Shown here: piece after piece, positions 1,415 through 39,280 of the stretch | How the letters are laid out: each line of letters begins with the position of its first letter | Position numbering within the stretch: the stretch's first letter is position 1 | IMG/VR virus record: IMGVR_UViG_2912765049_000001 | Span: 1-64,000 of that record | Source of the DNA: a virus | Lineage: Duplodnaviria; Caudoviricetes | DNA: 64,000 nucleotides | Reading direction: 5' to 3' (one strand) | The notes under the pieces: generated by a model | What the model saw: only the letters and a program-made list of their open reading frames with translations | What the model was told of the DNA's origin: nothing | Databases searched by the model: none | Translations under genes and position numbers: made by a program

Positions 1415-1450
1415 ACACTACTAAAACCCAATACGTAAGCAATAGGTTTC
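1415..1450 (-). promoter_or_regulatory. conserved promoter/operator cassette copy 1
   Basis: AAACCCAATACGTAAGCAA at 1424-1442; minus strand reads TTGCTT-N16-TAGTGT. Confidence 0.8.
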
Positions 1451-1503
1451 ATGGATTGGGTTGCAGGCGAGACTTCTGCAACTCCCGGGACAGGGAGGCG
1501 AGT

Positions 1504-2586
1504 TCAGGCGTCGTCGCCGTCGGCGGGCAGCATTCCGTCGGCCAGGGAGCAGCCGTCACACCCGGCGCCGAGCGCGGGCAGGGTGCCCGGCCCCTGGTGG
1601 GGGCGCGGTTTGCGCTTGGGCGGCCGGGTGAGCGCGTCGCGCACGGCCGTCTCCAGGGCGTCGAAGTCGGCGGTGTCGTCGTCCAGGACCACGCCCGGGC
1701 CGGGTGCGCCGGGCCGCCGGGCCTCCTCGATGACGGAGACGATGGTGGTCGACGGGTTGAAGGGGATGCCCCGGGAGTGCTCGACCTCGGCGTACAGGGC
1801 GGCCAGCCGGGGCCGGCGGGCGACGGCGAGGAGCAGGTCGCGGCGGTTGCTGAAGACGCAGGCCGAGCAGGAGCAGCGGGTGCTGCCTGCCCAGTCCCCG
1901 GCGCCGGGGGCCGAGTCGTAGGCCCAGTGGTGGGGCCAGCCCTCGGCGTCGGTCCACTCCTTGACGAAGGCGGTGGTGTCGCCGTGCGCGGGCAGCCACT
2001 CGTCGACGATCCGGTGGGAGTTGTCGGTGGTGCGCTGCAGCACGGGCCGCTTGCGGCGGTCCGGGCTCTCGTCCGCGCGCAGCCCGAGGACGTTGAGCAT
2101 CCTGGCCGGCCTGCCGTGCGCCTTCTTGAAGTCGCGGGCGGCCTGGCTGAACGCGCCGAAGATGAGCTTGGTCTTCCAGTCCCCGGTGCAGAACCGGGCG
2201 CGGCCGAGCCAGGGCCAGTCCCCTCGTTCGGCGATGAACGTGAGCAGGTCGTACGGGACAGCGTCACGGTGGCGGCGCAGCTCGAGGTGGCGCTCGGGCG
2301 GGACGCCGAGCAACCGGGAGTGTTCGGCGGCCAGTTCGCCGACGCTCGGGTAGCGCACGCCGTCGACCGTGCAGGCCGGCCACTCCATCGGGCCGAGCGA
2401 GGCGTGGACGGTCCAGATCCGGTCCTCGACACCGGCCTGCCGCGCGGCGTCCCTGGTGACCGCGGCGGCCCGCAGGCCGTCCTTGCCGCCGGAGAGGTTC
2501 ACGATGAGGAAGTCCTGCTGTGCCGCCAGCTCCACCGGGTCGATTCCGGTGGAGCTGGCGGCGAACAGGTCCAGCTGGGCCGTCAT
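1504..2586 (-). CDS. phosphoadenosine phosphosulfate (PAPS) reductase family protein
   Basis: PP-loop LSGGKDG, RFCTGDWK, LGLRADESPDR and RCSCSACVF motifs. Confidence 0.88.
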   Translation of the reverse strand: MTAQLDLFAASSTGIDPVELAAQQDFLIVNLSGGKDGLRAAAVTRDAARQAGVEDRIWTVHASLGPMEWPACTVDGVRYPSVGELAAEHSRLLGVPPERHLELRRHRDAVPYDLLTFIAERGDWPWLGRARFCTGDWKTKLIFGAFSQAARDFKKAHGRPARMLNVLGLRADESPDRRKRPVLQRTTDNSHRIVDEWLPAHGDTTAFVKEWTDAEGWPHHWAYDSAPGAGDWAGSTRCSCSACVFSNRRDLLLAVARRPRLAALYAEVEHSRGIPFNPSTTIVSVIEEARRPGAPGPGVVLDDDTADFDALETAVRDALTRPPKRKPRPHQGPGTLPALGAGCDGCSLADGMLPADGDDA

Positions 2587-2804
2587 GCCGCGTCCGGGTC
2601 GCCGAGGCGGATGTCCCAGTCGCCGCCGGGCAGGGGCCTCATCCAGCGGGCCAGGCATGCGCGGGCGAACTCGGCGTCCACCTCGCTGTCGCCCATCTCG
2701 CCCCAGAACTCGACGAGGTTGCCGGCCTGGGCGAGCAGGGCGCGGGCCACGAGCCTCTTCTTCTCGTTCACCCCGGGCGGCGGGGCGGGGGTCGGGGCGT
2801 TCAC
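2583..2804 (-). CDS. hypothetical protein
   Basis: 4-nt stop/start overlaps on both sides, GC3 bias. Confidence 0.6.
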   Translation of the reverse strand: MNAPTPAPPPGVNEKKRLVARALLAQAGNLVEFWGEMGDSEVDAEFARACLARWMRPLPGGDWDIRLGDPDAA

Positions 2805-3169
2805 TCGCTGTCCTCCCGGAGGCGGCGAAGGTCGAGGGCCCATCCGATCTGGCCGGTGGCGCGCCGGGTGCCCAGGTGGATCACGCCGGGCATGTAGGCG
2901 TCGCGCAGGGGCCGCCAGTTGTGGAGGCGGTGCGCGTGCAGGGCCGCGATCAGGTCGAGGGCGAAGGGGCTGTGCGGGGCCTCGGAGCGGTAGACGGCCG
3001 TCTCGTGGCCGGGCTGGCCGCTGGCGACCTGGGTGTAGAGGCGTACCTCCTCCTGCCCGGTGGCCACGCTGAGGAGCAGCAGGGCGGTGTCCAGAGGTGC
3101 GGCGTCGGCGGGGAACTCGGCGGCGAGCAGGGCCCGCAGCCGGTCGGTGGGGGTCAGGGCGGCGGTCAC
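2801..3169 (-). CDS. hypothetical protein
   Basis: coupled overlaps, GC3 bias. Confidence 0.65.
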   Translation of the reverse strand: MTAALTPTDRLRALLAAEFPADAAPLDTALLLLSVATGQEEVRLYTQVASGQPGHETAVYRSEAPHSPFALDLIAALHAHRLHNWRPLRDAYMPGVIHLGTRRATGQIGWALDLRRLREDSE

Positions 3170-3387
3170 CGGGCGGCCCGCCGCTCGACCATGTGCAGCA
3201 GCCAGTCGCGGCCGACGCGGGGGTCGTGGCCGCAGGTGCCGGCGACCTCGCCGTCCGGGCCGTTGGTGATGGAGAGGTACTTGCCCTGCTTGAGCTGGCC
3301 GACCGCGTAACGGATCCGGTCCTCCAGGCGCTCGCGGGCCATCCGTTCAGCGCCGGTCTCCAGCGCGCCGTCGGTGGTGGTCGTCAT
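3166..3387 (-). CDS. hypothetical protein, first gene under cassette copy 2
   Basis: ATG 3387, coupled to the next gene. Confidence 0.6.
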   Translation of the reverse strand: MTTTTDGALETGAERMARERLEDRIRYAVGQLKQGKYLSITNGPDGEVAGTCGHDPRVGRDWLLHMVERRAAR

Positions 3388-3427: not shown

Positions 3428-3465
3428 ACCGTATTTGAAACCCAATACGTAAGCAATAGCTTTCA
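3428..3465 (-). promoter_or_regulatory. conserved promoter/operator cassette copy 2
   Basis: core at 3438-3456; TTGCTT-N17-TACGGT. Confidence 0.8.
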
Positions 3466-3618
3466 AGGCGCTTTTGATCTTGACTCTCGGGGGCGATCAG
3501 AGCGTTCATGGAGGTGCCCGGGGAACACCGCGAAGCGCACGCGCCACGGGCACCGCAGCACCAGCTGCCCCCGGCCGGGGAGCTCCCGAATGCCCAACTC
3601 CGAAGAAACGAGGACGAC

Positions 3619-4203
3619 ATGACGACCACCCAGGCCCCGGCCGAGCTGACCACCGCGCAGGCCAAGGCGCTCGCCGCCCTGACCGAGCACCCCGGCGCCA
3701 CCGCCCGGGAGATCGCGGAGCACGCCGGGATCGGCGGCTCGACAGCGGGCAAGGCCCTCACCCACCTCGAGAGCCTGAACCTGGCCACCCGCGAGCACGG
3801 CGAGAACGTCGGCGGACGCGGCGGGCGGCGTACGGCGGACCGCTGGTACCCGGTCACGGCCGACGCCGAGCCCGAGGCACCTGCCGCCGACGAGCCGGAG
3901 ACCCCGGCCGAGGACGCGGCCGACACCGCGCCCGAGCCCGCCGAGGCCCCGGTCGCCGAGACCAAGACCGAGGCCGCCCCCAAGGCCAAGGCCCGCAACG
4001 GCAGCCGCCTGGGACGCGGCGACCTGCGGCAGATGGTCTACGAGTACCTCGAGGCCCACCCTGCCGACGAGATCGGCCCCTCGGGCCTGGCCAAGGCCCT
4101 CGGCCGCAGCGCCGGAGCGGTCGCCAACGCCCTGGCCAAGCTCGCCGACCACGGGCAGGCCGAACTGGTCAGCGACAGCCCGCGCCGCTACCGGCTGAAG
4201 TAG
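3619..4203 (+). CDS. DNA-binding protein with two winged-HTH (MarR-like) domains
   Basis: ATAREIAEHAGIGGSTAGKALTHLE and GPSGLAKALGRSAGAVANALAKL joined by an acidic Pro/Ala linker; GAGGA RBS. Confidence 0.8.
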   Translation: MTTTQAPAELTTAQAKALAALTEHPGATAREIAEHAGIGGSTAGKALTHLESLNLATREHGENVGGRGGRRTADRWYPVTADAEPEAPAADEPETPAEDAADTAPEPAEAPVAETKTEAAPKAKARNGSRLGRGDLRQMVYEYLEAHPADEIGPSGLAKALGRSAGAVANALAKLADHGQAELVSDSPRRYRLK

Positions 4204-8006: not shown

Positions 8007-8018
8007 CTCTCCACCGTA

Positions 8019-27390: not shown

Positions 27391-27964
27391 TACTCCACCT
27401 TCTTCCGGCAGGCTTCTTCGGGTTCACACGGTTCGGCCGCCGGTGGCCTCCGTGCCGAGCCAGAGTGTCAAGATCCACCTGGATGCACCAGGGGGCAGGG
27501 TCAACTTGTCAACAAAGTGATGTTCGGGGCAAGGACCTCGTGACGCTCTCCGGCAGATATGTGGGGGCGCCCCCACGTACGTGAGCTGCCGCGTCCGATG
27601 TTGCCGACAAAGAACACGCACCGCCGTACGAAGGGGCGCCAGAGACCCACCAGGGAGGTGCGCACACCCCCCGGTGACACGGGGAGTGTATCGCGCGTTG
27701 GTTCCAACCAACACTGATCTTTGGTTTTGTGATGGTTGAGAGTGGGGAAACACGGCGAACACGCCGCCCGGCCTCTCCCCCGGCCGCCGGAGTGATTGCC
27801 CCGCAATCACCGAACTCCCCGCCCTTGCCGCGGACTGCGCCACGGCCCGGCCGCCGAAACGACCGGGCCGTGGCGCGTGCGTGATTGCGGGGCAATCACT
27901 TCCTCGTCCTGCAGGCGACGTTCGCCCCTCTCCCCCCGTGGGTGATTGCCCCGCAATCACCCGC

Positions 27965-28816
27965 CTACTTCGAGATCCGCTTGAATCCCAGGCCCTTGGC
28001 CACCGAGAGGTAGTCGGCGGTGGCCTCGCCGGCGCGGTCGAAGTAGAGCAGCGGCTTCTGGTGGGCGTATGACTCCGGGATCTTCGTCGAGCGGCGGATG
28101 CCCGGCAGGACCAGGTCCCCGTATGCCTCCTCCACCATCTTCTTGCCGTCGTCCCAGACAGCTCCCTGGGAGCGGGTGGTGGGAACGTCCACCAGGAGCA
28201 CGCCGACCAACTCGGCGTGGGCTCCGTACTCGCCCCAGGTCTCCTTCACCAGCTCGATCTTCTGCTCGATGCGGGTGAGGCCGCGGAGTTCCTTCAGGCC
28301 GGGCTTGATGCATGCGACGATCTCGTCACTGGCCAGGATGGCGCCGATCACGACCAGGCCGAGGTTCCCGGGGCAGTCGATGATGATGACGTCGTAGTCG
28401 CCCTTGATGGGGGCGAGCAGGTTCTTCAGCCACAGCTCGCGGGCCATGGCCGTCGTCAGATGCTGCTCGGCGTTCTCCATCTCGTGCGATCCGAGCACCA
28501 GATACAGGTTGTCGATGACCTTCGTGTCGGGCCCGCCGAGCGGACCGGCGAGGGCCGGCACGATCGCCTCCGAGAGCTTCACGCTCTTGTCGGTGAGGCA
28601 GTCATAGATGGTCTTCTGGTCCTCGAGCTGGTCGGGGAAGGCGTAGCCGAGCTGGTACGACGCGTCGCACTGGTCATCGCCGTCGACGACCAGAACCTTC
28701 CAGCCGAACTCGGCCAGCTGCGCGCCGAGGTTCACGCCTGAGGTGCTCTTGCCGGACCCCCCGACCTGGTTGGTCATCGAGATGATCCGGGGAACGCGTT
28801 CTGCCTGGACGGTCAT
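27965..28816 (-). CDS. parA: ParA family partition ATPase
   Basis: NQVGGSGKST, VLVVDGDDQCDAS, YDVIIIDCPGNLG and IRRSTKIPES motifs; GGAG RBS. Confidence 0.92.
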   Translation of the reverse strand: MTVQAERVPRIISMTNQVGGSGKSTSGVNLGAQLAEFGWKVLVVDGDDQCDASYQLGYAFPDQLEDQKTIYDCLTDKSVKLSEAIVPALAGPLGGPDTKVIDNLYLVLGSHEMENAEQHLTTAMARELWLKNLLAPIKGDYDVIIIDCPGNLGLVVIGAILASDEIVACIKPGLKELRGLTRIEQKIELVKETWGEYGAHAELVGVLLVDVPTTRSQGAVWDDGKKMVEEAYGDLVLPGIRRSTKIPESYAHQKPLLYFDRAGEATADYLSVAKGLGFKRISK

Positions 28817-29153
28817 GGAGATCTCCACAGTGATTGCCCCGCAATCACGCACGGGATCCTGGCGGGGGAGTGGCGGAGCACCAGGAGGCATCGTGCCGGC
28901 GTGTGAAGGGCTGAGTGAGTACGAGTTCCTGCCGTGTCGTCCGCCTGAGCCGTCAGGTCCGCTGACGGAACATCGGGGAGTGAAGTGATTGCCCCGCAAT
29001 CACCCGCGTGCGCGGGGCCGACGCGGTGAGAGCGTGGCAGGCACGGTAGGAAGGGGAATGCTGGGGCGCACGTTATCGCGCCAGGCAGGAAAAACGCCAG
29101 TCGCCCCGCCGAGAAATCACTCGACGAGGCGACTCGTGGAAAGCGGCGGCGCT

Positions 29154-30416
29154 TCAGTCGCTCAGGATGAGCTCCTGCAGCTCCTCGAACTCGGCAGGGG
29201 AGAGGCGCTCCTTGAGACCGGTGTAGATGTCCTTCACCGTGGTCACGGCGATGACGCCCCGGTCCGAGACCGTGGCAACCGTCCCCGCAGGCTGCTGATT
29301 CTCCGTTTCGGCGGACGACTGCGCACCCCCGTTGGAGCCGGTGGTGGTGGTATCCGGCAGGTTCTGTGGCGGCTCTCCGGTTCCCGTCTCGGGCTTCTCG
29401 GAGGAATCCCCGGTCTGCTCGCCCTCCCCTGTCTCGGTGTTCCGCTGGGAGGGGAACGTGTTCTGCTCGGTGCCCGCGGGCTTGTTCTCCCCGCCGCCTT
29501 CAGCGCCGTTGCCGGACTCCTGCTGCTGGCCGGTGCCGCCGTCCCCAGTGGTCTCCGGCTGGGACTGCTGCGCGGAGCCGCTCTCGCCGGCCCCGGTCTC
29601 CTGCTGGTTGGTGCCGGACTCCGGCTCCTTGGTCTGCTCGGACGGAAGTTGCTGCTGCTCCAGCGGCACCTTGCTCTTGACGATGACCTCGGCGTCGTCG
29701 AAGGACAGCGTGCCGTCGACGTACGCCTGCTGGAGGTCCTCGCGCAGGCCGGCGAGAACGGTGGCGGCCTCCTTGATGGGCAGCAGCCGTTCCCCGCCGA
29801 ACTCGAACTCGAGGCCCCGCTGCCGGCACCAGTGGTCGATGACCGCCTGCTGCAGCGGCTCGATGAGGCTCAGGAGCTTGATCTTGTGGGAGATGGCCGT
29901 CTGCGACGTCCCCTTCCCGAGGCGCTTCGCGAGCTCCCGCTGAGAGATGCCCAGCTCGTCGAGCGCAGCCTGGTAGTCGGCACCCTGCTCAATGGGGTCC
30001 AGTCCCAGCCGCTGCTCGTTCTCCTTCATCGCGGCGATCCGCAGCGAGCCGTTCTCCGACACGGTCTTGCGGATGAAGACCGGCACCTTCTCCAGCCCCC
30101 GCAGTTTCGCGGCGGCCAGTCGGCGGTGGCCGTGCAGAACGACGAAGGGCTTGCCGGACTTCGCGACGTGCTCGCGGTGCTTCGGATAGTGCTTGACGTA
30201 CGCCTCGGCAGTGACGACGGTCAGCGCCTGGACGACTCCGTCTTCGTCGTAGGAGTCGGCAAGCCCCTCGACGTTACGGAGCCGCTTGCGGCCGTTCTCT
30301 GGGCTGGGCAGCAGGTCCTCAACGGGAAGTTCAGACGTCCCCTTGTTGAACAGGCGCTGTTGTTCTGCTGCCGCTCGGTGGGTACCGAGACTGACGTTGT
30401 TTGGCATTCCGGCCAT
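29154..30416 (-). CDS. parB: ParB family partition protein
   Basis: GVVQALTV, LHGHRRLAAAK (CTP-binding GxxR box), ENEQRLGLDPIE, HTH SQRELAKRLGKGTSQTAISH; long acidic linker. Confidence 0.92.
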   Translation of the reverse strand: MAGMPNNVSLGTHRAAAEQQRLFNKGTSELPVEDLLPSPENGRKRLRNVEGLADSYDEDGVVQALTVVTAEAYVKHYPKHREHVAKSGKPFVVLHGHRRLAAAKLRGLEKVPVFIRKTVSENGSLRIAAMKENEQRLGLDPIEQGADYQAALDELGISQRELAKRLGKGTSQTAISHKIKLLSLIEPLQQAVIDHWCRQRGLEFEFGGERLLPIKEAATVLAGLREDLQQAYVDGTLSFDDAEVIVKSKVPLEQQQLPSEQTKEPESGTNQQETGAGESGSAQQSQPETTGDGGTGQQQESGNGAEGGGENKPAGTEQNTFPSQRNTETGEGEQTGDSSEKPETGTGEPPQNLPDTTTTGSNGGAQSSAETENQQPAGTVATVSDRGVIAVTTVKDIYTGLKERLSPAEFEELQELILSD

Positions 30417-30849
30417 CGGGTCTCCGGGGGAGGTGGTGCTGATGTAGTGGGTCTCAGCCGCGAGCTTATCCGTCGGCACGGGGCGGCCGGAGGGGTGGCG
30501 TCCGATACGGGCGCGCACTGTGTCCGAGATGAGCAGAAATGCACCCTGCGGCGGTGGGTCCGGCGGGAAGTCGTGGACGGCGCAAGGTGATTGCGGGGCA
30601 ATCACTGCGGAGCGAGATCGGCGGCCTCGGCTGGCTCGTCCGCGCTCAGTATGCCCTCTGCAGCGGCGCGTTGGGGCGCAGACACCGCGACGAGGTAGAC
30701 CGGCTCCTGGAATATCTGCTCCGGGATGGCCGGCCGGGGGTAGGTGTCGCGCGGCCGGGGTGATTGCGGGGCAATCACTGCACCGGGACGGCGGGGGTCA
30801 TGCAACGGCGCGTTCTGCACTCGGGGTCCTTCTCTCTCGGCCCGCGTCA

Positions 30850-31635
30850 TCAAGGCGCGGGGTCGCTGGGTGTGGAAGCACGGGCTGCGGCGGCCTTCTG
30901 CCGCCGGGCCTCTCGCAGGGCCCGGGCGTGGGTGTCGGCCTTGCGCGCCCTGTCCTCCTCGAGGCTCTGCTGCAGGTACTGCGCCTCGACGTGGTCGTCC
31001 GGGTCCGCCTGGATCCGCATCCGGGTGAGCGGCACGTACGGGGTGCCGCGGGCCGCGTCGCGCTGGGCCTTCTCTTCCCGCAGCCGCTCCCGGACCTGGG
31101 CGTAGTCGGACGTCGGTTGAGTCCCGGGCGGCTGGGAGCGGGTCGGCGGGGAAGGCGCGGGCTCGGCAGCGGACGGTTCCGGTGCGGACGCCGGTCGGTG
31201 GACTCCCTTGCGGACCTTGATGGTGGTGAGCGTGCCCGGCTTCAGCGCACGGTTCACGTCGTCGCACAGCTGCCGGGAGACCAGTGACAGCATCCGTGCC
31301 CAGGAGTCCGACTCGCACACGACGGTCAGGGTCTTCGTCGTCTCGTCGTACTTCACGGCGTGCCAGTGGGCTGCGCGGTCCTCGCCGATGATCGACGGCC
31401 ACTGGTTGAGGAGGCTGCCGCCGTCGGCGGCTTCTTCCCAGCCGTTGTCGACGAGCCACTGCTTCCAGATGCTGCCCAGGGACAACGGGTCGCGTCCGTC
31501 GTAGCGGCGCCGGCGTATGGTCCGCTTCGGCTTGGGCGCCTGCTGATTCCCCTGCCGACGGGCCGCCTCCTTCGCCTGGCGCAGGGCAATGCGTGCCAGG
31601 TCGGCACCGCTTGCGGGAGGCACATCCGTCGTCAT
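30850..31635 (-). CDS. dciA: DciA (DUF721) helicase-loader family protein with C-terminal extension
   Basis: DLARIALRQAKEAAR, GRDPLSLG, GW, LLNQWPSIIGEDRAAH and LTVVCESDSWARML closely follow actinobacterial chromosomal DUF721/DciA. Confidence 0.85.
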   Translation of the reverse strand: MTTDVPPASGADLARIALRQAKEAARRQGNQQAPKPKRTIRRRRYDGRDPLSLGSIWKQWLVDNGWEEAADGGSLLNQWPSIIGEDRAAHWHAVKYDETTKTLTVVCESDSWARMLSLVSRQLCDDVNRALKPGTLTTIKVRKGVHRPASAPEPSAAEPAPSPPTRSQPPGTQPTSDYAQVRERLREEKAQRDAARGTPYVPLTRMRIQADPDDHVEAQYLQQSLEEDRARKADTHARALREARRQKAAAARASTPSDPAP

Positions 31636-31949
31636 CGCGCCCCCGGGAGTGATTGCCCCGCAATCACCTCGGCCGACGCGGGGGAGGGTGATTGCCCCGC
31701 AATCACTCCGGGCCCGGCCTCCGGGTCGCCCTCCAGGGCTCGAGGTGATTGCGCGGCAATCACCGGCGGCGGGGCTGCGGCCAGCACGGTGGGGCAGCGC
31801 CACTCGCTCCGGCAGGCCGAGCACACGGTCCGCCCCTCGGTTTCGACGGGGACGTGCAGGGCGAGCGCGGCACGCAGGCGGCCCAGTTCGGCGAGAAGGT
31901 CGTCCAGATCAGGGTCCGTTATCGAGCTGGCCGTGAGGTGGCGGGACAT
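31632..31949 (-). CDS. small Zn-binding protein coupled to dciA; its 3' end carries three palindromes
   Basis: LH.P......CSAC...WRCPT motif; AGGAG RBS; ATGA overlap with dciA. Confidence 0.6.
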   Translation of the reverse strand: MSRHLTASSITDPDLDDLLAELGRLRAALALHVPVETEGRTVCSACRSEWRCPTVLAAAPPPVIAAQSPRALEGDPEAGPGVIAGQSPSPASAEVIAGQSLPGAR

Positions 31950-31972
31950 GTGGAGTCTCTCCTGACGCGCTG

Positions 31973-33325
31973 TCAGTGCAGGCGGATGCGGGGGTTGTTG
32001 GCGTTGGCGTGGAGCTTCTGGCACAGGTCGACCAGCTCCGGCCCGTACAGCGCGACCGCGACCTGCGGGCCGGCCAACTCGTACGTGGCCAGCACCAGCC
32101 CGGGGTCGCCGTCGTACTTGTAGGCGGCCCACGCCTCGGCCCGCATTCGCTTACGGGTCTCTTCGTCGAGGTCCTCGAGGCCCGCACACTGCGGGTAGTC
32201 GTCGTCCTCGGCCTGCCGCTCGCGGGTCTCCTGCACCGCCGCGGCGAAGTCGGGATTCGGCGCGACCGCGTTGGCCCAGTCCTGCTGCAGCTGGGCATCG
32301 CCTTCGCGGACGGCCCGCTCCCGCAGCAGCCAGCTAGCGATGTACGTGTGGGGCCGGGTCGGCCGCCAGTCCAGGCCGGCCACGACCGAGGGCGAGATGT
32401 CCCGCAGCCAGACGTCGACCTGCTGCTCGGTGCATCCCTCGGCGAGCTTGTCGACCAGCACCCACGACAACTCGCTGATCTTGGCTCGCTGGGTCCAGTT
32501 GTGCAGCGGGCGCAGTCGGCGAGCGAGACGGTCGGCGGCCTGGAACAGGGCAGCGGTCACCTTGTGGCCCAGGGTGCTCGTCTTCGGCGGCTTGATCCTC
32601 GAGGCCCGCGCGCTGCGCGTAGCTTTCTCTTTCCCACCATCAACATCAGCAGGTACGTGGGCGGAACCACCACGAGAAGGGGGCGCAAGGCGCCCCGCAG
32701 CCGACTCCTTCGCCTTCGCCACAGCCTGCTCCCGGCCGGCCTCCGTGAAGCCGATGACCGTCGCCTCGTAGCCGGTGCCTCGTAGCCGGTGGCCCTTGGC
32801 GGCGTCGTACGCGAGCGGGATGGTCGCGCCGTAGATCGTGGCGGTGGCGGTGTACTTCCGGCCCGGCAGACGCAGGTTGCGCTTGGAACCGTGCTCGAGC
32901 CAGACCAGGGCGCCGAGTTCGCGGAGGTACGCCACGTGCCGCTTCACCGTGGACTTGTCCACCTTCAGCTTGGCCGCGGTGCCCAGGAGGTCGTACAGGA
33001 CGATGCCCCGCCGGTAGTCCATGCGGGCGGCCAGGTCCATCGCCACGCGCATTGTGGTGAGGGTGGCCTTCGGGTGGAGCTTCGCTTCGAAGATCAGCCA
33101 GTCCAGCGCGACCAGCCAGTCGCGCGGCTCGCAGCGGCGCGAGGCGGTGTGCATGACGTCCTGGGCGCTGCCGCGGACCAACTCGAAGCGGTCGCGCGCG
33201 GCCTCGGCCGACGGCGTGGAGGGGTCAGGTTTGGGCGCAGATGTGTCGCCCGCAGGGGTGGTGAAGGGCTCGACACTCCCCATTTGGGCAGGGTCGAGCT
33301 GACAAACGGCAGCGCTGTGCTGCAT
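31973..33325 (-). CDS. putative replication initiator, winged-HTH protein
   Basis: LLGTAAKLKVDKSTVKRHVAYLRELGALVW wHTH; heads the dciA-parB-parA unit; role inferred from context. Confidence 0.6.
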   Translation of the reverse strand: MQHSAAVCQLDPAQMGSVEPFTTPAGDTSAPKPDPSTPSAEAARDRFELVRGSAQDVMHTASRRCEPRDWLVALDWLIFEAKLHPKATLTTMRVAMDLAARMDYRRGIVLYDLLGTAAKLKVDKSTVKRHVAYLRELGALVWLEHGSKRNLRLPGRKYTATATIYGATIPLAYDAAKGHRLRGTGYEATVIGFTEAGREQAVAKAKESAAGRLAPPSRGGSAHVPADVDGGKEKATRSARASRIKPPKTSTLGHKVTAALFQAADRLARRLRPLHNWTQRAKISELSWVLVDKLAEGCTEQQVDVWLRDISPSVVAGLDWRPTRPHTYIASWLLRERAVREGDAQLQQDWANAVAPNPDFAAAVQETRERQAEDDDYPQCAGLEDLDEETRKRMRAEAWAAYKYDGDPGLVLATYELAGPQVAVALYGPELVDLCQKLHANANNPRIRLH

Positions 33326-34107
33326 TATGGGCTCGTCGTCCTCTCCGGAGGGCGGCAAAACGAGACCCCTCCTGGGGGCTCATTTGCCTTTCGAAGCACG
33401 AAGGGGGCGTGAAAACGGCCTCTCGGAAGTGCTTCTGAAGGTGGGTGTTTGAGCAGTAACCCGCCCCTGTGATGGGCGGTGAAGTCCCGAACGGCCGAGT
33501 AGCGACCGGGCGATCGGGCCCTAGTGGGAAGTGCAGGCGGGCACCTGAACTGACCACCGTTGGAAGTGGCCGCGCGTGGCTCGACTGGTTGACGGGCAAT
33601 CAACTGGTCGGCGAACAGCGGCCGGCGGAGGGTTCCGTGATTGCGGGGCAATCACCTCCGCGGCAGACCTACGTCATGCCAGCCCCCCTTCGGGGGAGGA
33701 CCTGGCCATCCCTTTTCCGCTGCGAGATCACGCCGAAGACGGCGCCGCCGGTGCGGAATCGAGGAAGAAGAACAGTCCGAGACATGCCAAGACCTGCCCT
33801 CGGGCGTGGCGCGTATGCGCTGCCCGGGTGGGTCCTCATGTGCCGTGCACTGGATGCACGGGTACGATGGCTCATGCCTCGGCCGTCCCAACACGGTCTC
33901 GGCGCTTTTTCGGCCCTCGTTACCCCGGCGTCCACTCCGGGGGTGGCGGGGGCCATAAGCGTTTTCGGACTAGTGCGGCCACCGGATCCGTGATCCCCAA
34001 ATATGGCCAGGGCTGAGCCTACCTCTGCGACCGCGTGGATTGCGACCACCTTCACTCCGACGTGTCGCATCGACTTTTCGCAGGTGTTCACGGCGTTTTC
34101 CTTCCTG

Positions 34108-34557
34108 TCAGGCTGCCGCAGCGGCAGGGGCGTTGGTGGTGTCGCCGGTCGCGGCGCGACGGCGGTTGCGGGCCTGGGTGCCGGCGGCCCGGCAGGGCTC
34201 GCAGGGGCAACGGCGCTTGGTGTAGCTCGACTCCGTGCCGTGCTGGTCGACCTGGAGCTCCGGCCCGGCCGCGCGCCGCGCCTGCTTGCCTGCTTTCTGA
34301 GCGAGCGTCAGGGCTGCCGCGAACACCGAGTCGTGCTGGCGCAGGTTGTACACCGGGGTCCTCGACAGCCCGGCCGATGCTGCGGCCTCGGCCACCGTGG
34401 CACCCCGGCTGATGTCGGTGAGCAGCTGCTCGATCTGCTCCGGGTTGGTCAGGGCCGGCGGCCGGCCCCGGCCGCGCCGCACCGGTACAGCGGGTGCGGC
34501 GGTGCGCGGCTCGTCGTCCGCGGGCGCCGGGCGCAGGGGGAGGAGGGCCGTCGTCAC
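34108..34557 (-). CDS. HTH protein with AT-hook-like RGRGRP and C-terminal HGT/CxCxxC motif
   Basis: GATVAEAAASAGLSRTPVY; HGTESSY...CPCEPCR. Confidence 0.7.
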   Translation of the reverse strand: MTTALLPLRPAPADDEPRTAAPAVPVRRGRGRPPALTNPEQIEQLLTDISRGATVAEAAASAGLSRTPVYNLRQHDSVFAAALTLAQKAGKQARRAAGPELQVDQHGTESSYTKRRCPCEPCRAAGTQARNRRRAATGDTTNAPAAAAA

Positions 34558-35156
34558 GCGGCGGCCTCCAGCTCGGGGCCGGACGGCCGCTCGCCGGAGA
34601 TTCGCTTGGCGGCCTCCTCGAGGAGCGCGGGCACCGTCAGCTCGTCGGAGTGGAAGCCGAGCTGCTCGCACATCTGGGCGTACACCCAGCGGACGTTGGG
34701 GTAGGGCCGCTTCATCGTCTCGGCCGCGGCCCGCAGGTCCGGCTGCTCGGCCAGGGCCTGCAGCAGTGACGCCTGCGCCGGGGAGGGCTCCCAGTTCTCC
34801 GTCGGCTGGGGCCGCTTGTCGCCCTGGCGGGCGAGCCGGGCGCGCCGCTTCTTCTGTGCCCGGCGCTCCGCACGGCGTTCGTCGGCGGTCATCCCGCCCC
34901 ACACGCCGTCGGACTCCCACCATCCGCTGCCGCCGAGGGCGTAGGCGCGGCAGGCCGCCAGGACCGGGCAGCCGCTCAGGCAGACCTTCTTGGCGTCCCG
35001 CTCGTTGGCGGCACCGGGCGTGTAGAAGAGGTCCGGGTCGATGACGAACTCGCCGAGTTCGTCGGTGACCGCGCACAACCGCAGCGGCCAGTTCGGGTGG
35101 GCTTCGAGTTCGGAGAGGGCGGCGTTCTGGTCGGGGCTGAGCATGTCGATCCTCAC
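34554..35156 (-). CDS. WhiB family transcriptional regulator
   Basis: LC...PDLFY...AKKVCLSGCPVLAACRAYAL...GVWGGMTADER. Confidence 0.9.
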   Translation of the reverse strand: MRIDMLSPDQNAALSELEAHPNWPLRLCAVTDELGEFVIDPDLFYTPGAANERDAKKVCLSGCPVLAACRAYALGGSGWWESDGVWGGMTADERRAERRAQKKRRARLARQGDKRPQPTENWEPSPAQASLLQALAEQPDLRAAAETMKRPYPNVRWVYAQMCEQLGFHSDELTVPALLEEAAKRISGERPSGPELEAAA

Positions 35157-35365
35157 TCCTCGCGGGCCTGCGCCCGGATAATCACGTCGGTGGCCTCGGC
35201 GACGACGAGCGTCGCGGCCAGCTCGGACCGGGTCCGGCGGTGCACAGCACGCTCGAGGACCCGCTCCAGCCGTTCGCCGGCCAGGGCCTGGTCGACCCGG
35301 CGGCGGTGCCACCACAAGACGGCAGCACCGGTGAGCGCCGCGGCGGCAAGGCAGCGGATGCGCAT
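35153..35365 (-). CDS. small hypothetical protein with N-terminal hydrophobic segment
   Basis: GGAGG RBS, coupled overlap. Confidence 0.55.
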   Translation of the reverse strand: MRIRCLAAAALTGAAVLWWHRRRVDQALAGERLERVLERAVHRRTRSELAATLVVAEATDVIIRAQAREE

Positions 35366-35422
35366 GGGAGTTCACCTCCGTCCACGGCGCGGTCGGGGCC
35401 AGGGCGACCCGGCGGGCGGCGG

Positions 35423-36688
35423 TCATGCCGCCAGCCCGAGGGGTTCGAGTTCCTGGCCGGTGATGAATTCGAAGGCCATCGCCCCCAGGTCGCGGGCGAT
35501 GTTGCCGGTGACGGCATTGCCGACCATCGAGATCAGCTGCTTGTCGCGGTCCTGCTTCTTCTCGGCGGTGGCGATCAGCTCGTAGTCGGCGGGGAAGGTC
35601 ATGGCGACCTTCCGTTCGTCGATCGTCACGAGCCGGGCGTGCCGATCGCGGACGTCGGCAGCGGTTCCGCTGACCCACAGGTGGTGGTTGCCGCCTGCGG
35701 TCAGCGTTGACAGGGGCCGGCTGGTGGGCCGGTGCGTGGAGCCGCCACCCCGCAGCTCGGCGATGAACGGGGCGCCGCCGTACTTGAGGTGCCCGTCCTG
35801 GATCTTTCGCCAGGTGTTCGCGTTGTGCGGGCGGAGGTAGCGGTCGCCGATCAGCGGGCCGGGGTTGGAGAAGTCCAGGACCTCGGCGATCGGGCGCAGC
35901 GCGTACGGCTCCAGGTCCACGGTGGCGCACGCCTTGTGAGGGCAGCGCCAGGTGTACTGGGAGATGTACTTGCCCCACGGCCGCTGCGGCGAGCAGGAGT
36001 CCGTCAGCTTCCAGCTCTGCAGCGCCTGCACCTTCCCGTGCCGGGCGCACACCACGAGCGGGCGCATCCACTTGTCGAAGTTCGGCGTGCGGCCGACGGA
36101 CTCGTGCCACAGCACGACGTACATGCGGTCCCGGCTGGTGTGCGCGGCCGGCCCGTAGGCGGCGGCGTGCGCAGAGTTCGCGTAGACGATGCGGTGGCGG
36201 TAGCCCCACGCACGCAACTGGGCGAGCCACGCGTTGAAGGCGGCGCCCTTGTTGTGCTTCGGCCCCCACAAGCGAGCCTCGACCACGTTCTCCACGACGA
36301 TGAACAGGTACTGGTGGAACTCAGCGAACCTCGGGACACAGTGCATGGTGGCCCGCGAGCGGATGGCGGTTTCGTCGGCGCCGGTCGTGGAGAACAGGCC
36401 GTCGACGAACTCGCCCTGCAGCCGCGGCTGGCCCTGCGCGACGGTGTGGTGAGTGCATTCCGGGCTCGACCACAGCGCGTGGGTCCGCGGCCACGCCGAC
36501 GGCACCACCTGCGAGAGGTCTGCCAGGTGCACCCGGACATGCTGGTGGTTGGCCTTGTAGGTGGCCGTGCAGTGTGCGGCGTGGTTGCCGGCCTGGACGA
36601 CGACCGTGCCGGGCACCTGCTCGAGGCCCCCGGGCACACCCCCGCCCCCGCCGAACTGGTCGCTCCACGTCACGGCGAACGCTGCCAT
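35423..36688 (-). CDS. orphan C5-cytosine DNA methyltransferase
   Basis: motif I DQFGGGGG, IV WSSPECT, VI VENVVE, VIII TSRDRMY, X VGNAV. Confidence 0.9.
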   Translation of the reverse strand: MAAFAVTWSDQFGGGGGVPGGLEQVPGTVVVQAGNHAAHCTATYKANHQHVRVHLADLSQVVPSAWPRTHALWSSPECTHHTVAQGQPRLQGEFVDGLFSTTGADETAIRSRATMHCVPRFAEFHQYLFIVVENVVEARLWGPKHNKGAAFNAWLAQLRAWGYRHRIVYANSAHAAAYGPAAHTSRDRMYVVLWHESVGRTPNFDKWMRPLVVCARHGKVQALQSWKLTDSCSPQRPWGKYISQYTWRCPHKACATVDLEPYALRPIAEVLDFSNPGPLIGDRYLRPHNANTWRKIQDGHLKYGGAPFIAELRGGGSTHRPTSRPLSTLTAGGNHHLWVSGTAADVRDRHARLVTIDERKVAMTFPADYELIATAEKKQDRDKQLISMVGNAVTGNIARDLGAMAFEFITGQELEPLGLAA

Positions 36689-37521
36689 CAGGCCGCCTCC
36701 GCTCGCCGGTTGGCCCGCGCGAACGCCTGGTCGACCGCGGCCTTCGTGACCCCGATCCGCTCGGCGGCCTGCTGCCGGGTGTACCCGCACGTCTCCATCA
36801 GCCAGGAGATGTCCTCGACGAGCGCGGCCGTCCGGGTCGCGCGGGCTCCGAGGTCGGGGACTGCCGCCGGGTCGTCGATCGACTCGTCGTCCCAGGCGAG
36901 GGGGGAGGGCCATCCGGCTGCCGCGGCGCGCGCCAGGGTACGGGTGATGCCGCGGGCGGTGGCGCCGAAGGCGCGCGGGTCCGCGTTCCACGCCCGGTCG
37001 TACAGGGCGGCCACCCGCTGAGCCATGCCCACGGTGACGGTGGCCTGGCTGAGCATGGTGTGGAAGTTCATCGGGTGCATATCCAGCTCACCGGCCAGCA
37101 CCGCGTTGGGGAAGCCCATCGCCCCCAGCGCCCGCACGCGCCGTAATGAGCCGGTGGCGTCGATCGGTATCCGGGAGGGCGGCGCCGCCGGGTCGGCACG
37201 CAGGACCAGGAGCGCCCGGGCGTGGTGGGCGCGGATCTGCTGGGAGGGCGCCCTCCCCAGTGAGGGCCGGCCGTACAGCAGTCGCTCGAGGACGCCGTGC
37301 GACATGCAGGCGGCCGTGGCGAGGTGACGGCGCTGCATCCCGGCCTCCATGAGCCCCCGCACGTGGGTACGCACAGGCTCGGCGTCGACATACGGCTGCC
37401 ACCGCCGAAGGATGATCTGCTTCTGCCGGTTGGCGACGTACGCGGCGTTGGCAGCGCGGCAGATCGGGCACCGGCACCCCTCGCGCTTGTACTTCGCGTA
37501 ACCGTGCTCGCGGTCGGCCAC
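36688..37521 (-). CDS. actinophage-type multi-HTH protein ('PLAWDD' family), paralog of 18036-18971
   Basis: HGYAKY...CRCPICR, AEPVRTHV, DATGSLRRVRAL and PSPLAWDDESIDDP motifs; TTA codon at 37144-37146. Confidence 0.75.
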   Translation of the reverse strand: MADREHGYAKYKREGCRCPICRAANAAYVANRQKQIILRRWQPYVDAEPVRTHVRGLMEAGMQRRHLATAACMSHGVLERLLYGRPSLGRAPSQQIRAHHARALLVLRADPAAPPSRIPIDATGSLRRVRALGAMGFPNAVLAGELDMHPMNFHTMLSQATVTVGMAQRVAALYDRAWNADPRAFGATARGITRTLARAAAAGWPSPLAWDDESIDDPAAVPDLGARATRTAALVEDISWLMETCGYTRQQAAERIGVTKAAVDQAFARANRRAEAA

Positions 37522-38468
37522 TACGCCGCCCCCTGCTGGGCGTTGGCCTGCTGGCTGCGGGCGTACGCCCGGGAGAGCCGGAAGGAGACGAGGTCGCCGA
37601 GGGTCGTCAGCTTCCCCTGGTGGTCGATGGCGGCCATGCCCGCCGCCCGGCACTCCTGGATCTCGCGGGCCAGCTCGGACAGCGACTCGTACGTGGCCTC
37701 GCCGTCGTACGCGCGGTGCAGCATGTCGGTGCGCGGAGCACGGTCGACTCCTTCGTCGGCCCACTTCCTCAGCGCGGCCCCGACGGCGACGGCGTCCGTG
37801 AGGACCTCGTCGGCGAGGGCGGGCGCGGCGGACTTGGTGACCACCATCTCGTGGGTCGGCAGCAGGGACGCCGCGAAGTCGACGTCGTACTCGAGGCCGT
37901 CGCGGGCCTCGGCGCGCATACTCACCCGGGTGGGCACCGTGCGCCCGGCGGCGTCGGTGGCCAGAACGGCTTCCAGGCGGTTACGCAGGACGCCGATGAC
38001 GTGGCCGGGGAAGCACTGCACCGCCTCGATCATCTGCCGTTCCACGGGCCGGACTTCGTCCCAGGCCGCATCCCTGCCGCCCTTGCCGCCGCGCTGGGCG
38101 ACCTGGTCGCGGACGCCCTCGGGGCCGCTCCAGAACGCGGACCAGCTGGCGAGCACGACCACGTCGTATGAGGCTGCGGCGTACAGCGCCAGGCAGAGGT
38201 CCTTCGGGTCGAACGAGGTCATCTCCGTGACGTCGAACGTGACCTCGTCGGCGTACTGCCGGGACCTGCCACGCTCGGTGTCGATGACCGCGATGGTGTC
38301 GCCCAGGGCGGAGGCCATCCGCAGAGCGGAGATCAACCGGTTGGAACCAGGCGGGCCGTCGAGGAGCGCACGTACGGGACGGGCTTCCTTCGCGGCCTGC
38401 GCGAACTGAAATTGGGTGTGCGGAACCAGGCCGCCCGCGGATGCGGGGGCCTCGGCGGCGGTCGCCAT
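37521..38468 (-). CDS. phage-type AAA (AAA_24/Sak4-like) protein with degenerate Walker motifs
   Basis: F..A.KE...RALLDGPPGSNRLISAL, IAVIDTERG, YDVVVLASWSAFW, RDGLEYDVD. Confidence 0.75.
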   Translation of the reverse strand: MATAAEAPASAGGLVPHTQFQFAQAAKEARPVRALLDGPPGSNRLISALRMASALGDTIAVIDTERGRSRQYADEVTFDVTEMTSFDPKDLCLALYAAASYDVVVLASWSAFWSGPEGVRDQVAQRGGKGGRDAAWDEVRPVERQMIEAVQCFPGHVIGVLRNRLEAVLATDAAGRTVPTRVSMRAEARDGLEYDVDFAASLLPTHEMVVTKSAAPALADEVLTDAVAVGAALRKWADEGVDRAPRTDMLHRAYDGEATYESLSELAREIQECRAAGMAAIDHQGKLTTLGDLVSFRLSRAYARSQQANAQQGAA

Positions 38469-38554
38469 GAGGTGGGTCTCCTATGCGGTTGTTCTGTCGC
38501 GGAGGGCCGGGCCGGTGTCGGCTTCCAGCCCGCAGGGCGCCCCCGCGCGGCGTC

Positions 38555-39097
38555 TTACTCCTGGTCCAGCTCGCCGGCCAGGTAGTCCTCACGCAGGTAC
38601 TGGGTGATCACCCGGGACGGATTGACGAGGAACTTCAGGCGCTCCTTGTCGGCCTTGCAGCGGGCCTCGATCGGCGCCCAGTCGTCGTCGCTCATGCGCA
38701 GGCTGGCGCTCGGCAGCGACTTGACCGGCTTCTCGCCCGCCGCCCGGCGCGGTGCCCGCACCGGTTTGACCGGCGTGATGCCGCCCTCGAGGTACTTCGT
38801 GAACCCGCCGCGCAGCACGTCGGCGAGGCTGCGGTGTTCGCGCTTGGCCTTCTTCTCCGCCGCGTCCTTCACGTCCTGCGGGATGTACAGCGGCCGGGAC
38901 GGCAGGTCTCCCGAGTCGTCGCGCACCGCCCACACCGCGCGGCCGGCGGCCCGGGCGAGCGCGCCGAACGCATCGGCGCTGCCCTCGAGCACCCCGAAGT
39001 CGGTCTTCAACTTGGCGACGCCGCCCTCGGCGATCACCTCGTAGGACGTCTTGTCGGTCAGGCGGAACACGGGGACGGAGGGCTGCTCGTCAGCCAC
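38555..39097 (-). CDS. putative tandem ribbon-helix-helix DNA-binding protein
   Basis: LPSRPLYIPQDVKDAAEKKAKREHRSLADVLRGGFTKY and LPSASLRMSDDDWAPIEARC...SRVITQYL; first gene under cassette copy 6. Confidence 0.65.
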   Translation of the reverse strand: MADEQPSVPVFRLTDKTSYEVIAEGGVAKLKTDFGVLEGSADAFGALARAAGRAVWAVRDDSGDLPSRPLYIPQDVKDAAEKKAKREHRSLADVLRGGFTKYLEGGITPVKPVRAPRRAAGEKPVKSLPSASLRMSDDDWAPIEARCKADKERLKFLVNPSRVITQYLREDYLAGELDQE

Positions 39098-39234
39098 GGC
39101 GGTTGATCCTCTCGACGGCGGGCCGCGCCGGACCCTGACCGGCGCGTCGGCGTACGACATGTACGACCTCACTTTCGCAGAACCGTGCCGGAGGTCCCGG
39201 TGGTGCGTGCTGCACCAACCGTCCCGGCGGCCCC

Positions 39235-39280
39235 ACGATAACTAAAACCCTATACGTAAGCAATGGGTTTTGGGTATGGT
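39235..39280. promoter_or_regulatory. conserved promoter/operator cassette copy 6 at the point where transcription diverges
   Basis: AAACCCTATACGTAAGCAA at 39245-39263 inside AAAACCC...GGGTTTT; leftward TTGCTT-N17-TATCGT; rightward -10-like TATGGT. Confidence 0.8.

Follow-up and report, generated by a model that had tools for sequence, protein, structure and literature searches.

A repeated promoter-like cassette and a candidate double ribbon-helix-helix regulator in circular Streptomyces phage-plasmids

One short cassette is repeated at the heads of operons around a circular Streptomyces replicon of 151,949 bp, whose first 64,000 nt (the window) we analysed. We think it probable (roughly 60%) that the repeat is the common early promoter, with its operator, of circular Streptomyces phage-plasmids, and that the product of a double ribbon-helix-helix (RHH) gene binds it in a negative feedback loop. 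The cassette's anatomy recurs from copy to copy, it is specific to these elements, it is conserved at syntenic operons in relatives, and its sites have changed in concert between lineages. Which protein binds it, and the sign of the regulation, we infer.

The element carries phage genes (terminase, capsid, portal and tape-measure) as well as plasmid genes (ParAB, DciA and Rep), so it is a phage-plasmid rather than a conjugative plasmid.

The cassette and the operons behind it

A 19-nt motif occurs exactly at 1424, 3438, 14198, 17894, 25829 and 39245, always on the + strand as written (Table 1). (The copy at 39245 has T for A at position 7.) As the initial annotation had claimed, these six copies share one orientation and are intergenic, 9-117 nt upstream of a minus-strand gene; the placement and the distances use GC3-based gene calls. 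The chance expectation is 0, as the motif had no match in 100 dinucleotide-preserving shuffles. The proposal of an element-wide regulon held up in a scan of the whole replicon, where six proved to be an understated set: there are ten copies, eight of them exact (the window's six plus 140347 and 149140) and two degenerate (71041 and 117920). We found no copies inside genes; all are in short intergenic gaps. Several stand directly between a hairpin that resembles an intrinsic terminator and an operon: copy 4 is preceded by a terminator-like hairpin (about 17936-17968) and copy 5 by a strong terminator (25876-25901). Nearly all operons of the DNA-metabolism and maintenance arm of the element appear to begin at copies of one putative promoter-operator.

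Table 1. Cassette copies and associated genes in the window
Feature	Coordinates	Strand	Details
Cassette copy 1	1415..1449	-	Weak left arm; -35 TTGCTT; 16-nt spacer; -10 TAGTGT; heads gene 279-1340
Cassette copy 2	3428..3463	-	-10 TACGGT; heads operon 1504-3429; divergent from MarR-family gene
Cassette copy 3	14188..14223	-	Perfect arms; -10 TAGTGT; heads operon 6978-14081
Cassette copy 4	17884..17919	-	-10 TAGTGT; heads operon 14295-17840
Cassette copy 5	25819..25854	-	Perfect arms; heads operon 18036-25773 (DUF6197, DUF5131, WhiB)
Cassette copy 6	39235..39280	-	Strand switch; perfect arms; leftward -10 TATCGT at 39235-39240
Candidate regulator gene	38555..39172	-	First gene behind copy 6
Rest of switch-copy operon	25964..38336	-	AAA_24 ATPase, C5 methyltransferase, WhiB, Rep-like, DciA, ParB, ParA, two small genes
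MarR-family winged-helix regulator gene	3508..4203	+	Clear winged-helix match; divergent from copy 2

The initial annotation had also raised the case of a motif common in the host chromosome. The 9.6-Mb chromosome lacks the 19-mer at up to 3 mismatches, which makes the motif element-specific. It also lacks all four 11-14-nt sub-motifs that we searched for, the 12-nt CGTATWGGGTTT among them; an 8-nt piece of the motif does occur there. The exact motif is multi-copy solely on Streptomyces contigs of 110-165 kb and in one IMG/VR virus.

Read on the minus strand, each window copy has TTGCTT, 17 nt (16 in copy 1), and then TAGTGT, TACGGT or TATCGT, which reproduces the anatomy first described. The TTGCTT hexamer (4/6 matches to TTGACA) is invariant in the exact copies and becomes TTCCTT or TTTCTT in the degenerate class. 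The TANNNT type of -10 is the Streptomyces consensus, which the cassettes fit. A promoter scan tuned to E. coli, and not to Streptomyces, does not flag the cassettes, whose -10 hexamers are below its threshold. The cassette is most likely a promoter of the host housekeeping-sigma type (-35 TTGCTT, 16-18 nt, TANNNT); the sigma factor used and the transcription starts are predicted from sequence.

An imperfect 26-bp dyad (AAACCC-N14-GGGTTT) spans the -35 hexamer and the spacer, and its arm centres are about two helical turns apart. Among the window copies, the arms are perfect only at 14198, 25829 and 39245, the same three that were first noted. The strongly conserved core lacks symmetry, and most copies have a weak left arm, so the data do not require a symmetric two-arm model.

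Two copies have additional features. Copy 6 carries a mirror-image, rightward -10-like TATGGT (39275-39280, + strand) that lacks a usable -35. The copy at 71041 lacks a forward -10; it points the same way as its downstream genes and faces the upstream operon, which encodes accessory enzymes. Its reverse-facing promoter also lacks a -35. A GntR gene accompanies this type of copy.

Part of the cargo first listed for the operons was confirmed. Pfam searches find DUF1643, NERD, DUF5131, two WhiB genes and a C5 methyltransferase; family searches of the minus-strand operons gave no match at E<=0.001 for MmcB, ASCH, RusA or exonuclease. The PAPS reductase label has as its sole basis the plasmid-record annotation under a 72%-identity match. 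The operon behind copy 3 encodes the DUF1643 and NERD proteins, a Y-family polymerase and a weak Gad1-like match.

Conservation and concerted change in related elements

The motif is also multi-copy in related elements. At up to 4 mismatches, five complete elements (including our own) hold 46 copies, with ten over 152 kb in our element and 8-10 in each of the four relatives, and across all five the copies stand in front of the same syntenic operons. A TANNNT hexamer 16-18 nt from the -35 is kept in 42 of the 46 (17 nt in 33, 18 nt in 6 and 16 nt in 3), in nine different versions, while the flanks diverge. The orientation is that of the headed gene block in 45/46 copies, and in 38/38 of those with at most one mismatch. 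The exception is at 80647 in S. diastatochromogenes (4 mismatches), where TACGGT at 17 nt and an operon downstream are nevertheless present. Copies of the 71041 type, found in our element and in S. muensis, are oriented like their downstream genes, lack the forward -10 and face an upstream operon.

A more distant comparison is with a 91-kb Kitasatospora phage-plasmid (NZ_CP108485), which shares the structural, ParA/ParB/DciA/Rep and RHH genes with our element. It has the same layout, with 8 copies of a completely different dyad cassette. These are partly at positionally equivalent places, and one is directly upstream of the RHH homologue. Comparing the sequences, all of the sites have changed in concert between the lineages. 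The same layout with a wholly different cassette indicates that the sites evolve in concert with a factor that the element encodes.

Which protein might bind the cassette

Copy 6 sits at the strand switch, directly above a two-RHH gene, as had been reported. We place this gene at 38555-39172 (38555-39097 originally); it has two in-frame starts (ATG near 39160 and GTG 39097), each with its own Shine-Dalgarno site. In the AF2 model, the chain of 180-205 amino acids has an N-terminal beta3-alpha domain and two RHH units (E92-95/H99-111/H116-128 and E156-159/H162-179/H185-197) with pLDDT of 85-90. Residues 90-128 match the PHROG family phrog_6506, "Arc-like repressor" (E 7.6e-8). A Pfam search gave no match, and a profile search against the PDB gave only a weak match to an antitoxin (VapB26, E 0.74). 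When we compared structures, residues 89-201 of the model matched F-relaxosome chains (9f0x/9f0y, which we take to be F-plasmid TraY) with Z 8.7 over 97 residues, DndE with Z 8.6, AvtR with Z 6.9, and single-chain Arc with Z 6.1; unrelated proteins scored at most 4.5. The model supports a single-chain protein whose two RHH units form a pseudo-dimer.

We have several reasons to consider this protein the best candidate for the cassette's binder. First, its gene follows the switch copy in 8/8 related elements examined and keeps this position in every lineage examined, and in the plasmids of about 90 kb a homologous switch promoter precedes it. Second, of the predicted DNA-binding proteins, we found only this one, Rep and ParB in common with the Kitasatospora lineage. 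Third, the divergent neighbour at the switch is not conserved: among elements with an identical operator, it belongs to three unrelated families. Fourth, the beta-strand residues presumed to read DNA do not vary inside a lineage and differ among the three lineages with different operators, a co-variation that is confounded by overall divergence (25-34% identity). Judging from gene order and the structural model, the double-RHH product is most likely what binds the cassette.

The circuit would work as follows. A host sigma factor of the housekeeping type would read each copy, and a protein on the dyad over the -35 and spacer would exclude RNA polymerase. The extra N-terminal domain could pair two RHH chains, one per dyad arm. 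Since the RHH gene sits behind a cassette copy, and would be driven by it, this would be a negative feedback loop, like those of Arc at P22 Pant and Cro at lambda PR. (It is solely this gene position that suggests autoregulation.) In a naive cell that the element has just entered, about ten promoters would fire at once, which would be the zygotic induction first proposed; the burst would cover DNA metabolism, replication, partition, WhiB, the methylase and possible anti-defence genes. As the RHH protein accumulated, it would throttle the promoters to a low steady level that is compatible with plasmid life.

Among the genes in the operon of copy 6 are rep and par, which must stay on in the plasmid state. 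Large gaps within 25964..38336 may hold further promoters, and such internal promoters could decouple rep and par from the control of copy 6.

The MarR-family gene beside copy 2, which was absent from the initial annotation, is a second regulator candidate, either as a rival to the RHH gene or with a local role. It belongs to a broader alternative, which we consider possible but doubtful: that the promoter-operator is bound by another protein of the element (MarR, GntR, or an unannotated repressor elsewhere on the 152 kb) and that the RHH gene is merely the first early gene. The RHH protein might then be a Cro-like second regulator, a partition- or relaxosome-type accessory protein, or antitoxin-like. 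Its closest structural matches (TraY-like relaxosome chains and DndE) are indeed not repressors of regulons, and the PDB profile search returned only the weak VapB antitoxin match. Much of the element carries no annotation, and the MarR gene, with its clear winged-helix match, is divergent at copy 2 in 5/5 elements of the lineage. But we did not find a MarR homologue on the Kitasatospora plasmid, despite the same architecture there. Also, MarR dimers usually read half-sites about one helical turn apart, not two. Finally, MarR and GntR are each found at a single peripheral copy, but in every lineage it is the RHH gene that stands at the switch copy.

If the double-RHH protein is the binder, its role could be wider. 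It might be the whole switch, repressing about ten leftward early promoters and activating the mirror-image rightward ones (39275-39280 and 71041) from the same site, with an RNA-level layer acting through the conserved 5' end of several early transcripts. The phage-plasmids of Streptomycetaceae would then fall into immunity groups according to changes in the specificity of this protein and of its roughly ten sites. We consider this extended version improbable.

Less probable again is that the 19-mer is a positive element, and that the promoters need an activator or sigma-appropriating factor from the element, such as one of the two long WhiB-like proteins, and stay off in a naive host until it has been made. 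Two WhiB-domain proteins (200-212 amino acids) are encoded inside the regulon, WhiB-type factors are known to act through the principal sigma factor, and the rightward promoters at 39275-39280 and 71041, which have no -35, may need activation from the same site. However, a good -35 at canonical spacing is already present in the leftward promoters, and the conserved block over the -35 and spacer is the classic position for a repressor (an activator would be expected upstream). A sigma factor gene is also absent: we did not find a sigma-70 region-2 gene on the 152-kb element, and all 48 matches were chromosomal. Lastly, the WhiB genes are themselves behind cassette copies, which would leave an activator circuit without a way to start.

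Comparison with known regulons

To our knowledge, actinomycete phage-plasmids have barely been studied, and only pZL12 has been characterised. In the literature on them, we found no description of the decision between plasmid life and lytic growth. The initial annotation's view that the regulon was undescribed holds for the element family and for its candidate double-RHH regulator, but not for the control logic: P1, phiC31 and L5 already establish that a single repressor can act at many dispersed operators, so what would be gained is a new type of regulator and a new family, not a new principle. The locus offers a compact, testable circuit, with one cassette of 35-45 bp, one candidate regulator and about ten operons as targets; genes for replication, partition and methylation are among these, as are possible anti-defence genes. 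Sister lineages carry natural variants in specificity that lend themselves to swap experiments. If the true protein-site pair is as proposed, Streptomyces engineering would also gain a small, orthogonal promoter system that can be repressed.

The control logic that we propose matches that of P1 C1, phiC31 and L5. In the phage-plasmid P1, the C1 repressor has 22 dispersed, asymmetric operators of 17 bp (PMC8546580). As here, one site is found at many operons round the genome of a phage-plasmid, DNA-metabolism and replication functions are controlled, and the operator has an asymmetric core that overlaps promoters (it even begins with the same ATTGCT). Unlike P1, which repeats the operator only, our element repeats a whole promoter (-35, spacer and -10 spacing). 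Its host is an actinomycete, and its candidate regulator has a double-RHH fold instead of the C1 fold and is encoded by the first gene behind a cassette copy. Family searches of the genes examined (part of the element) returned no C1-like name, and we identified no modulators of the Coi, Lxc or Ant type.

The closest parallel for the candidate regulator's position is in P22 immI, where Arc (an RHH homodimer of 53-aa chains with one operator) is the first gene of the arc-ant operon and shuts off its own promoter, Pant. Both have the RHH fold and come first in the operon that they repress or would repress, giving a burst and then shut-off. But the chain here is 180-205 amino acids long, fuses two RHH units, has an extra domain and would act at about ten promoters. 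Two RHH units per polypeptide, in a pseudo-dimer, are also seen in TraY, AvtR (from an archaeal lipothrixvirus, 4hv0) and DndE (7x4e), with Z of 6.9-8.7 over about 95 residues and 11-16% sequence identity to the candidate; the N-terminal domain is additional here. Of these, AvtR regulates viral transcription, TraY is an accessory protein of the relaxosome, and DndE is a phosphorothioation protein. We know of none of these that governs a multi-promoter phage-plasmid regulon.

In the Streptomyces phage phiC31, isoforms of the gene c repressor bind about 18 conserved inverted repeats (CIRs) at conserved early promoters. This too is a temperate Streptomyces phage with many early promoters that share their sequence and a repeated dyad operator, and in-frame isoforms of the regulator are possible in our element as well. 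However, the phiC31 repressor family and operator sequence are unrelated to those here, its early promoters do not belong to the -35/-10 housekeeping class, and it integrates, whereas our element replicates as a plasmid.

The gp71 repressor of L5 binds asymmetric operators and stoperators whose orientation follows transcription (PMC9283540). The cassettes resemble stoperators in both respects, but stoperators, which a monomeric HTH protein reads, are sites inside transcription units that have no promoter and act on elongation, while 42/46 cassettes carry a spaced -10. It is very unlikely that the repeats are not primarily transcription signals (L5-type roadblocks, or replication, recombination or packaging sites): this would fit the asymmetric core, the strict orientation and the short gaps, but a correctly spaced TANNNT is kept through sequence change, several copies directly follow terminators, and none is within a gene.

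The initial annotation had named the CUP/ArdK system of IncN and IncW plasmids as a parallel, along with Bacillus plasmids. CUP elements of IncN are repeated upstream elements that carry a promoter, with an autoregulated repressor (ArdK) and establishment genes (PMC6289460). The repeated, promoter-bearing upstream element is alike, but CUP is in the leading region of an enterobacterial conjugative plasmid, and our element has phage structural genes. Because it is a phage-plasmid, its nearest analogues are P1 C1, the phiC31 CIRs and the L5 operators.

The element and its cassette copies

A reading frame is unbroken over the end-to-start junction of the Streptomyces replicon C2, and in a relative these genes lie side by side. 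So C2 is circular, or at least circularly permuted, and because this frame crosses the contig ends, the window starts inside a gene. (The homologue of the junction gene is 268 amino acids long in relatives.) C2 has 151,949 bp and 71.4% GC, and is the second replicon beside a chromosome of 9.62 Mb; its first 64 kb make up the window. Megablast against phage and plasmid collections found no close relatives of the window. In tblastn comparisons, C2 proteins matched a distantly related, 91-kb circular Kitasatospora plasmid (NZ_CP108485) with 45-60% identity over a siphovirus-type structural block, where the matching genes are annotated as terminase, major capsid protein, and tape measure protein. 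ParA (58%) and ParB (46%) also match, as do DciA, Rep, and AAA_24. The type III PKS PhlD is encoded on the Kitasatospora plasmid as well, and pZL12 and pSLE1 were also reported to have a type III PKS. These structural, partition, and replication matches, together with the PKS parallel, indicate that C2 is a phage-plasmid of the broad pZL12 kind. (There is a weak tyrosine-integrase match in the right arm of the plasmid-borne phage.)

The initial annotation described a 19-mer at six positions in the window. All six are exact, and 100 shuffles gave no match. The scan that it proposed, of the whole replicon and its relatives, found eight exact copies and two degenerate copies on C2, as well as multiple copies in related records. 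Using an exact pattern of 18 specified bases, we found multiple copies only in Streptomyces sp. 2.9 (a 164-kb contig), S. muensis (111 kb), S. diastatochromogenes (140 kb), Streptomyces sp. NPDC127100, and one IMG/VR virus (142 kb). Single matches in unrelated phyla were no more than chance would give for this pattern and collection size. As the initial annotation pointed out, a motif that is common in host chromosomes would point to a host regulon. The 19-mer is absent from the chromosome at up to three mismatches, and none of four sub-motifs of 11-14 nt was found there. (An 8-nt piece does occur.) Since the chromosome holds no copy of the cassette, a host regulon is ruled out as the source of the motif.

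Coordinates of the cassettes and associated features (positions are on C2 unless another record is named)
Feature	Position	Strand
Cassette copies 1-6, exact	1424, 3438, 14198, 17894, 25829, 39245
Cassette copies beyond the window, exact	140347, 149140
Degenerate cassette copies	71041, 117920
Junction reading frame	151423-151949 joined to 1-282
Candidate regulator (RHH protein)	38555-39172	minus
Two in-frame starts of the candidate gene	39097-39172
Divergent neighbour of the candidate	39281-39721
MarR-family gene	3508-4203
Block between copy 2 and the MarR gene	3457-3507
CGAC-R-M-AGA-(A)-CAC sequence, copies 2, 4, and 5	3400-3411, 17852-17865, 25785-25800	minus
CGAC-R-M-AGA-(A)-CAC sequence, fourth copy	27605-27622	plus
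Gene whose homologue precedes a Kitasatospora cassette	25964-26197
Weak Gad1 match	12844-13746
Y-family (ImpB/MucB-type) DNA polymerase	6978-8006
Weak tyrosine-integrase match	53675-54862
Aminotransferase-led enzyme operon	69578-70801
GntR/UTRA regulator	72878-73558
Cytochrome P450	116530-117717
WYL-domain gene in L090-L092	about 19100-19600
RHH gene in S. lunaelactis JABSUC010000058	9887-10528

Cassette anatomy and promoter evidence

Read on the minus strand, the cassette begins with a weakly conserved A-rich left arm, which in copies 3, 5, and 6 is a perfect AAACCC. After a single base come TTGCTT, 13 invariant nt that end in GGGTTT, 3-5 variable bases, and TANNNT. Inner sequence and outer arms are symmetric about one common center, which makes the site an imperfect 26-bp dyad. 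By our own reading of the copy sequences, it has mirror matches at 9 of 13 positions, and its arm centers are 20 bp apart. The -35 hexamer lies within the dyad, as does most of the spacer. (In S. lasiicapitis, the copy at the strand switch, which corresponds to copy 6, carries an A-to-G operator variant.) Strong terminator-like hairpins with T-tails lie directly upstream of copies 4 and 5, and several other copies are also preceded by hairpins, so the cassettes lie at the boundaries of transcription units.

A promoter scan tuned to E. coli flagged none of the cassettes, so the promoter evidence comes from a comparative analysis of TANNNT. We compared 46 cassette copies from C2 and four related records taken in full. 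TANNNT lies 16-18 nt from TTGCTT in 42 of these, in the form of nine different hexamers, and the flanks otherwise vary freely. This is the pattern that selection on a -10 element would predict. As C2 has no gene with sigma-70 region 2, the cassettes are likely read by a host sigma factor.

The switch copy also has a mirror-image -10-like hexamer, at an equal distance from the other arm, which lacks a -35 and is conserved across relatives. Of the two arrangements, the degenerate copy at 71041, which faces an aminotransferase-led accessory operon, retains just the reverse one. In the 117920 class the -35 is weakened, and a cytochrome P450 gene lies downstream. Degenerate copies with a weakened -35 sit before cargo at both loci, and this class, its own substitutions included, is conserved in three relatives. 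A GntR/UTRA regulator accompanies the 71041-type copy in all five elements (C2 and the four related elements).

A double-RHH candidate regulator and its proposed link to the site

Neither the candidate regulator, encoded just below the switch copy, nor its divergent neighbor has a Pfam match. Residues 90-128 of the candidate match the PHROG "Arc-like repressor" family (E = 7.6e-8). An AlphaFold2 model built with 22 homologues (mean pLDDT 70; 85-90 in the C-terminal half) has an N-terminal domain of three strands and a helix, followed by two beta-alpha-alpha units. Residues 89-201 align with F-plasmid relaxosome chains (Z = 8.7 over 97 residues), DndE (8.6), the viral regulator AvtR (6.9), and single-chain Arc (6.1). 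Unrelated entries reached at most 4.5, so the comparison supports the earlier call of two RHH units. (Only entry titles were given for the relaxosome chains; we presume that they are TraY, which is known to have tandem RHH units.) The family is narrow: we found 24 close homologues, all from Streptomyces and mostly on contigs of 50-180 kb, and only 28 matching clusters among 1.84 billion representatives. Each of the two in-frame starts of the gene has a Shine-Dalgarno sequence of its own. The extension between them (22 codons) has a constant length, with synonymous changes among relatives; a long isoform may therefore be produced as well as a short one.

In all eight elements of the lineage that we examined, a cassette copy with a conserved leader immediately precedes a homologue of the candidate (72-100% identity). 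We rejected the divergent gene as the cognate repressor because three unrelated families occupy its place among elements with identical operators. The Kitasatospora plasmid encodes an RHH homologue with 34% identity at the same place in a syntenic operon. Its cassette is quite different: a perfect 10-bp inverted repeat, with arm centers 19 bp apart, flanks a TTGCAA -35 on both sides. All eight copies are intergenic and on the same strand, and one is directly upstream of the RHH homologue. Some occupy places equivalent to those of copies in the window; for instance, one comes right after the homologue of the gene at 25964-26197. All the sites within a lineage have thus changed together, which requires a co-evolving trans factor encoded by the element. 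Among predicted DNA-binding proteins, only the RHH protein, Rep, and ParB are detectably common to the two lineages.

More distant RHH homologues (25-28% identical) are the first gene at the switch in three Streptomyces phage-plasmids of about 90 kb (L090-L092), opposite a WYL gene, and each has a homologous promoter upstream. One of these plasmids has, like the Kitasatospora plasmid, a 14-bp palindrome as its dyad, and this recurs 15-20 kb away. In the two beta-strands that presumably read the DNA, the residues are constant inside each lineage and differ among the three lineages. This fits co-variation of specificity, but is confounded by overall divergence.

In L090-L092, the small WYL-domain gene and the RHH gene are divergent, and on the Kitasatospora plasmid the WYL gene instead comes immediately after one of the eight cassettes. 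We rejected the WYL protein as a switch partner in the C2 lineage, because the five elements have no WYL homologue. Separately, S. lunaelactis has a 58%-identical RHH gene without a promoter cassette. Homology begins just downstream of the promoter, the motif was not found within 20 kb, and the neighbors are an ISL3 transposase, a PhD/ParE pair, and Ku. This locus is probably a remnant of a decayed element and is uninformative about the link between protein and site.

We propose that when the regulator is missing, host RNA polymerase would fire all the cassettes. The double-RHH protein made from the switch copy would then bind the dyad, plausibly with one pseudo-dimeric chain per arm, joined via the N-terminal domain. 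By blocking the -35 and spacer it would close a negative feedback loop like those of Arc/Pant or Cro, giving a burst on entry and a low set-point later. This would suit an arm that mixes replication and partition genes with establishment functions (methylase, possible anti-defence, and recombination and repair genes). The bound protein might repress or activate the reverse promoters at the switch copy and 71041.

There is perhaps one chance in four that another protein of the element (MarR, GntR, or an unannotated protein) binds the cassette instead. All five elements have the MarR gene, which is divergent from copy 2; it has no counterpart on the Kitasatospora plasmid. Dependence of the cassette promoters on an activator seems improbable, and a non-promoter role even more so, as both fit the anatomy of the cassette poorly.

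Operons behind the cassettes and known systems

In each of the five elements, the same syntenic operons begin with a cassette copy (domain names are supported by Pfam). One runs RHH / AAA_24 / methylase / WhiB / Rep / DciA / ParB / ParA; another runs from DUF6197 to DUF5131 to WhiB. A third has small genes, and a fourth has a weak Gad1-like match, DUF1643, NERD, and a Y-family polymerase. A short operon adjoins the MarR gene, and one or two more lie across the origin. For the second gene behind copy 3, a weak Gad1 match (anti-Gabija; E = 1.7e-4, below the Pfam cut-off) hints at anti-defence genes in the regulon. The copy-3 operon ends with the polymerase gene. The reverse complement of the block between copy 2 and the MarR gene contains TTGATCTTGACTC and is conserved at all copy-2-type sites of the five elements; the block is probably the MarR promoter or MarR's own operator.

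One known regulator of a similar kind is the c repressor of phiC31, with its conserved inverted repeats. P1 C1 has 22 asymmetric 17-bp operators (PMC8546580), L5 gp71 has asymmetric, orientation-linked sites (PMC9283540), and CUP/ArdK is a plasmid-borne regulon with dispersed operators (PMC6289460). The cassettes share this dispersed-operator design. Unlike these systems, the entire promoter is repeated, the element is an actinomycete phage-plasmid, and the candidate regulator is a double-RHH protein from outside their protein families. In the library that was searched, there was no paper on this phage-plasmid family. The initial annotation's reading, a promoter-operator regulon under the RHH protein, seems largely right from sequence comparison, with the protein as a candidate only; the novelty is lower than was claimed, as the design was already known.

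Finally, copies 2, 4, and 5 are followed by a conserved sequence of the type CGAC-R-M-AGA-(A)-CAC that starts 8-9 nt past their -10, where the transcripts are predicted to have their 5' end. A fourth copy is inside a gene-free gap (26.7-27.9 kb). This sequence could be an RNA-level signal or a requirement on the initial transcribed sequence. The closely similar CCGACAACGAACC is behind seven of the eight Kitasatospora cassettes, though the operators differ, and a sequence like it is also behind one S. europaeiscabiei operator copy (L092, near 39900).
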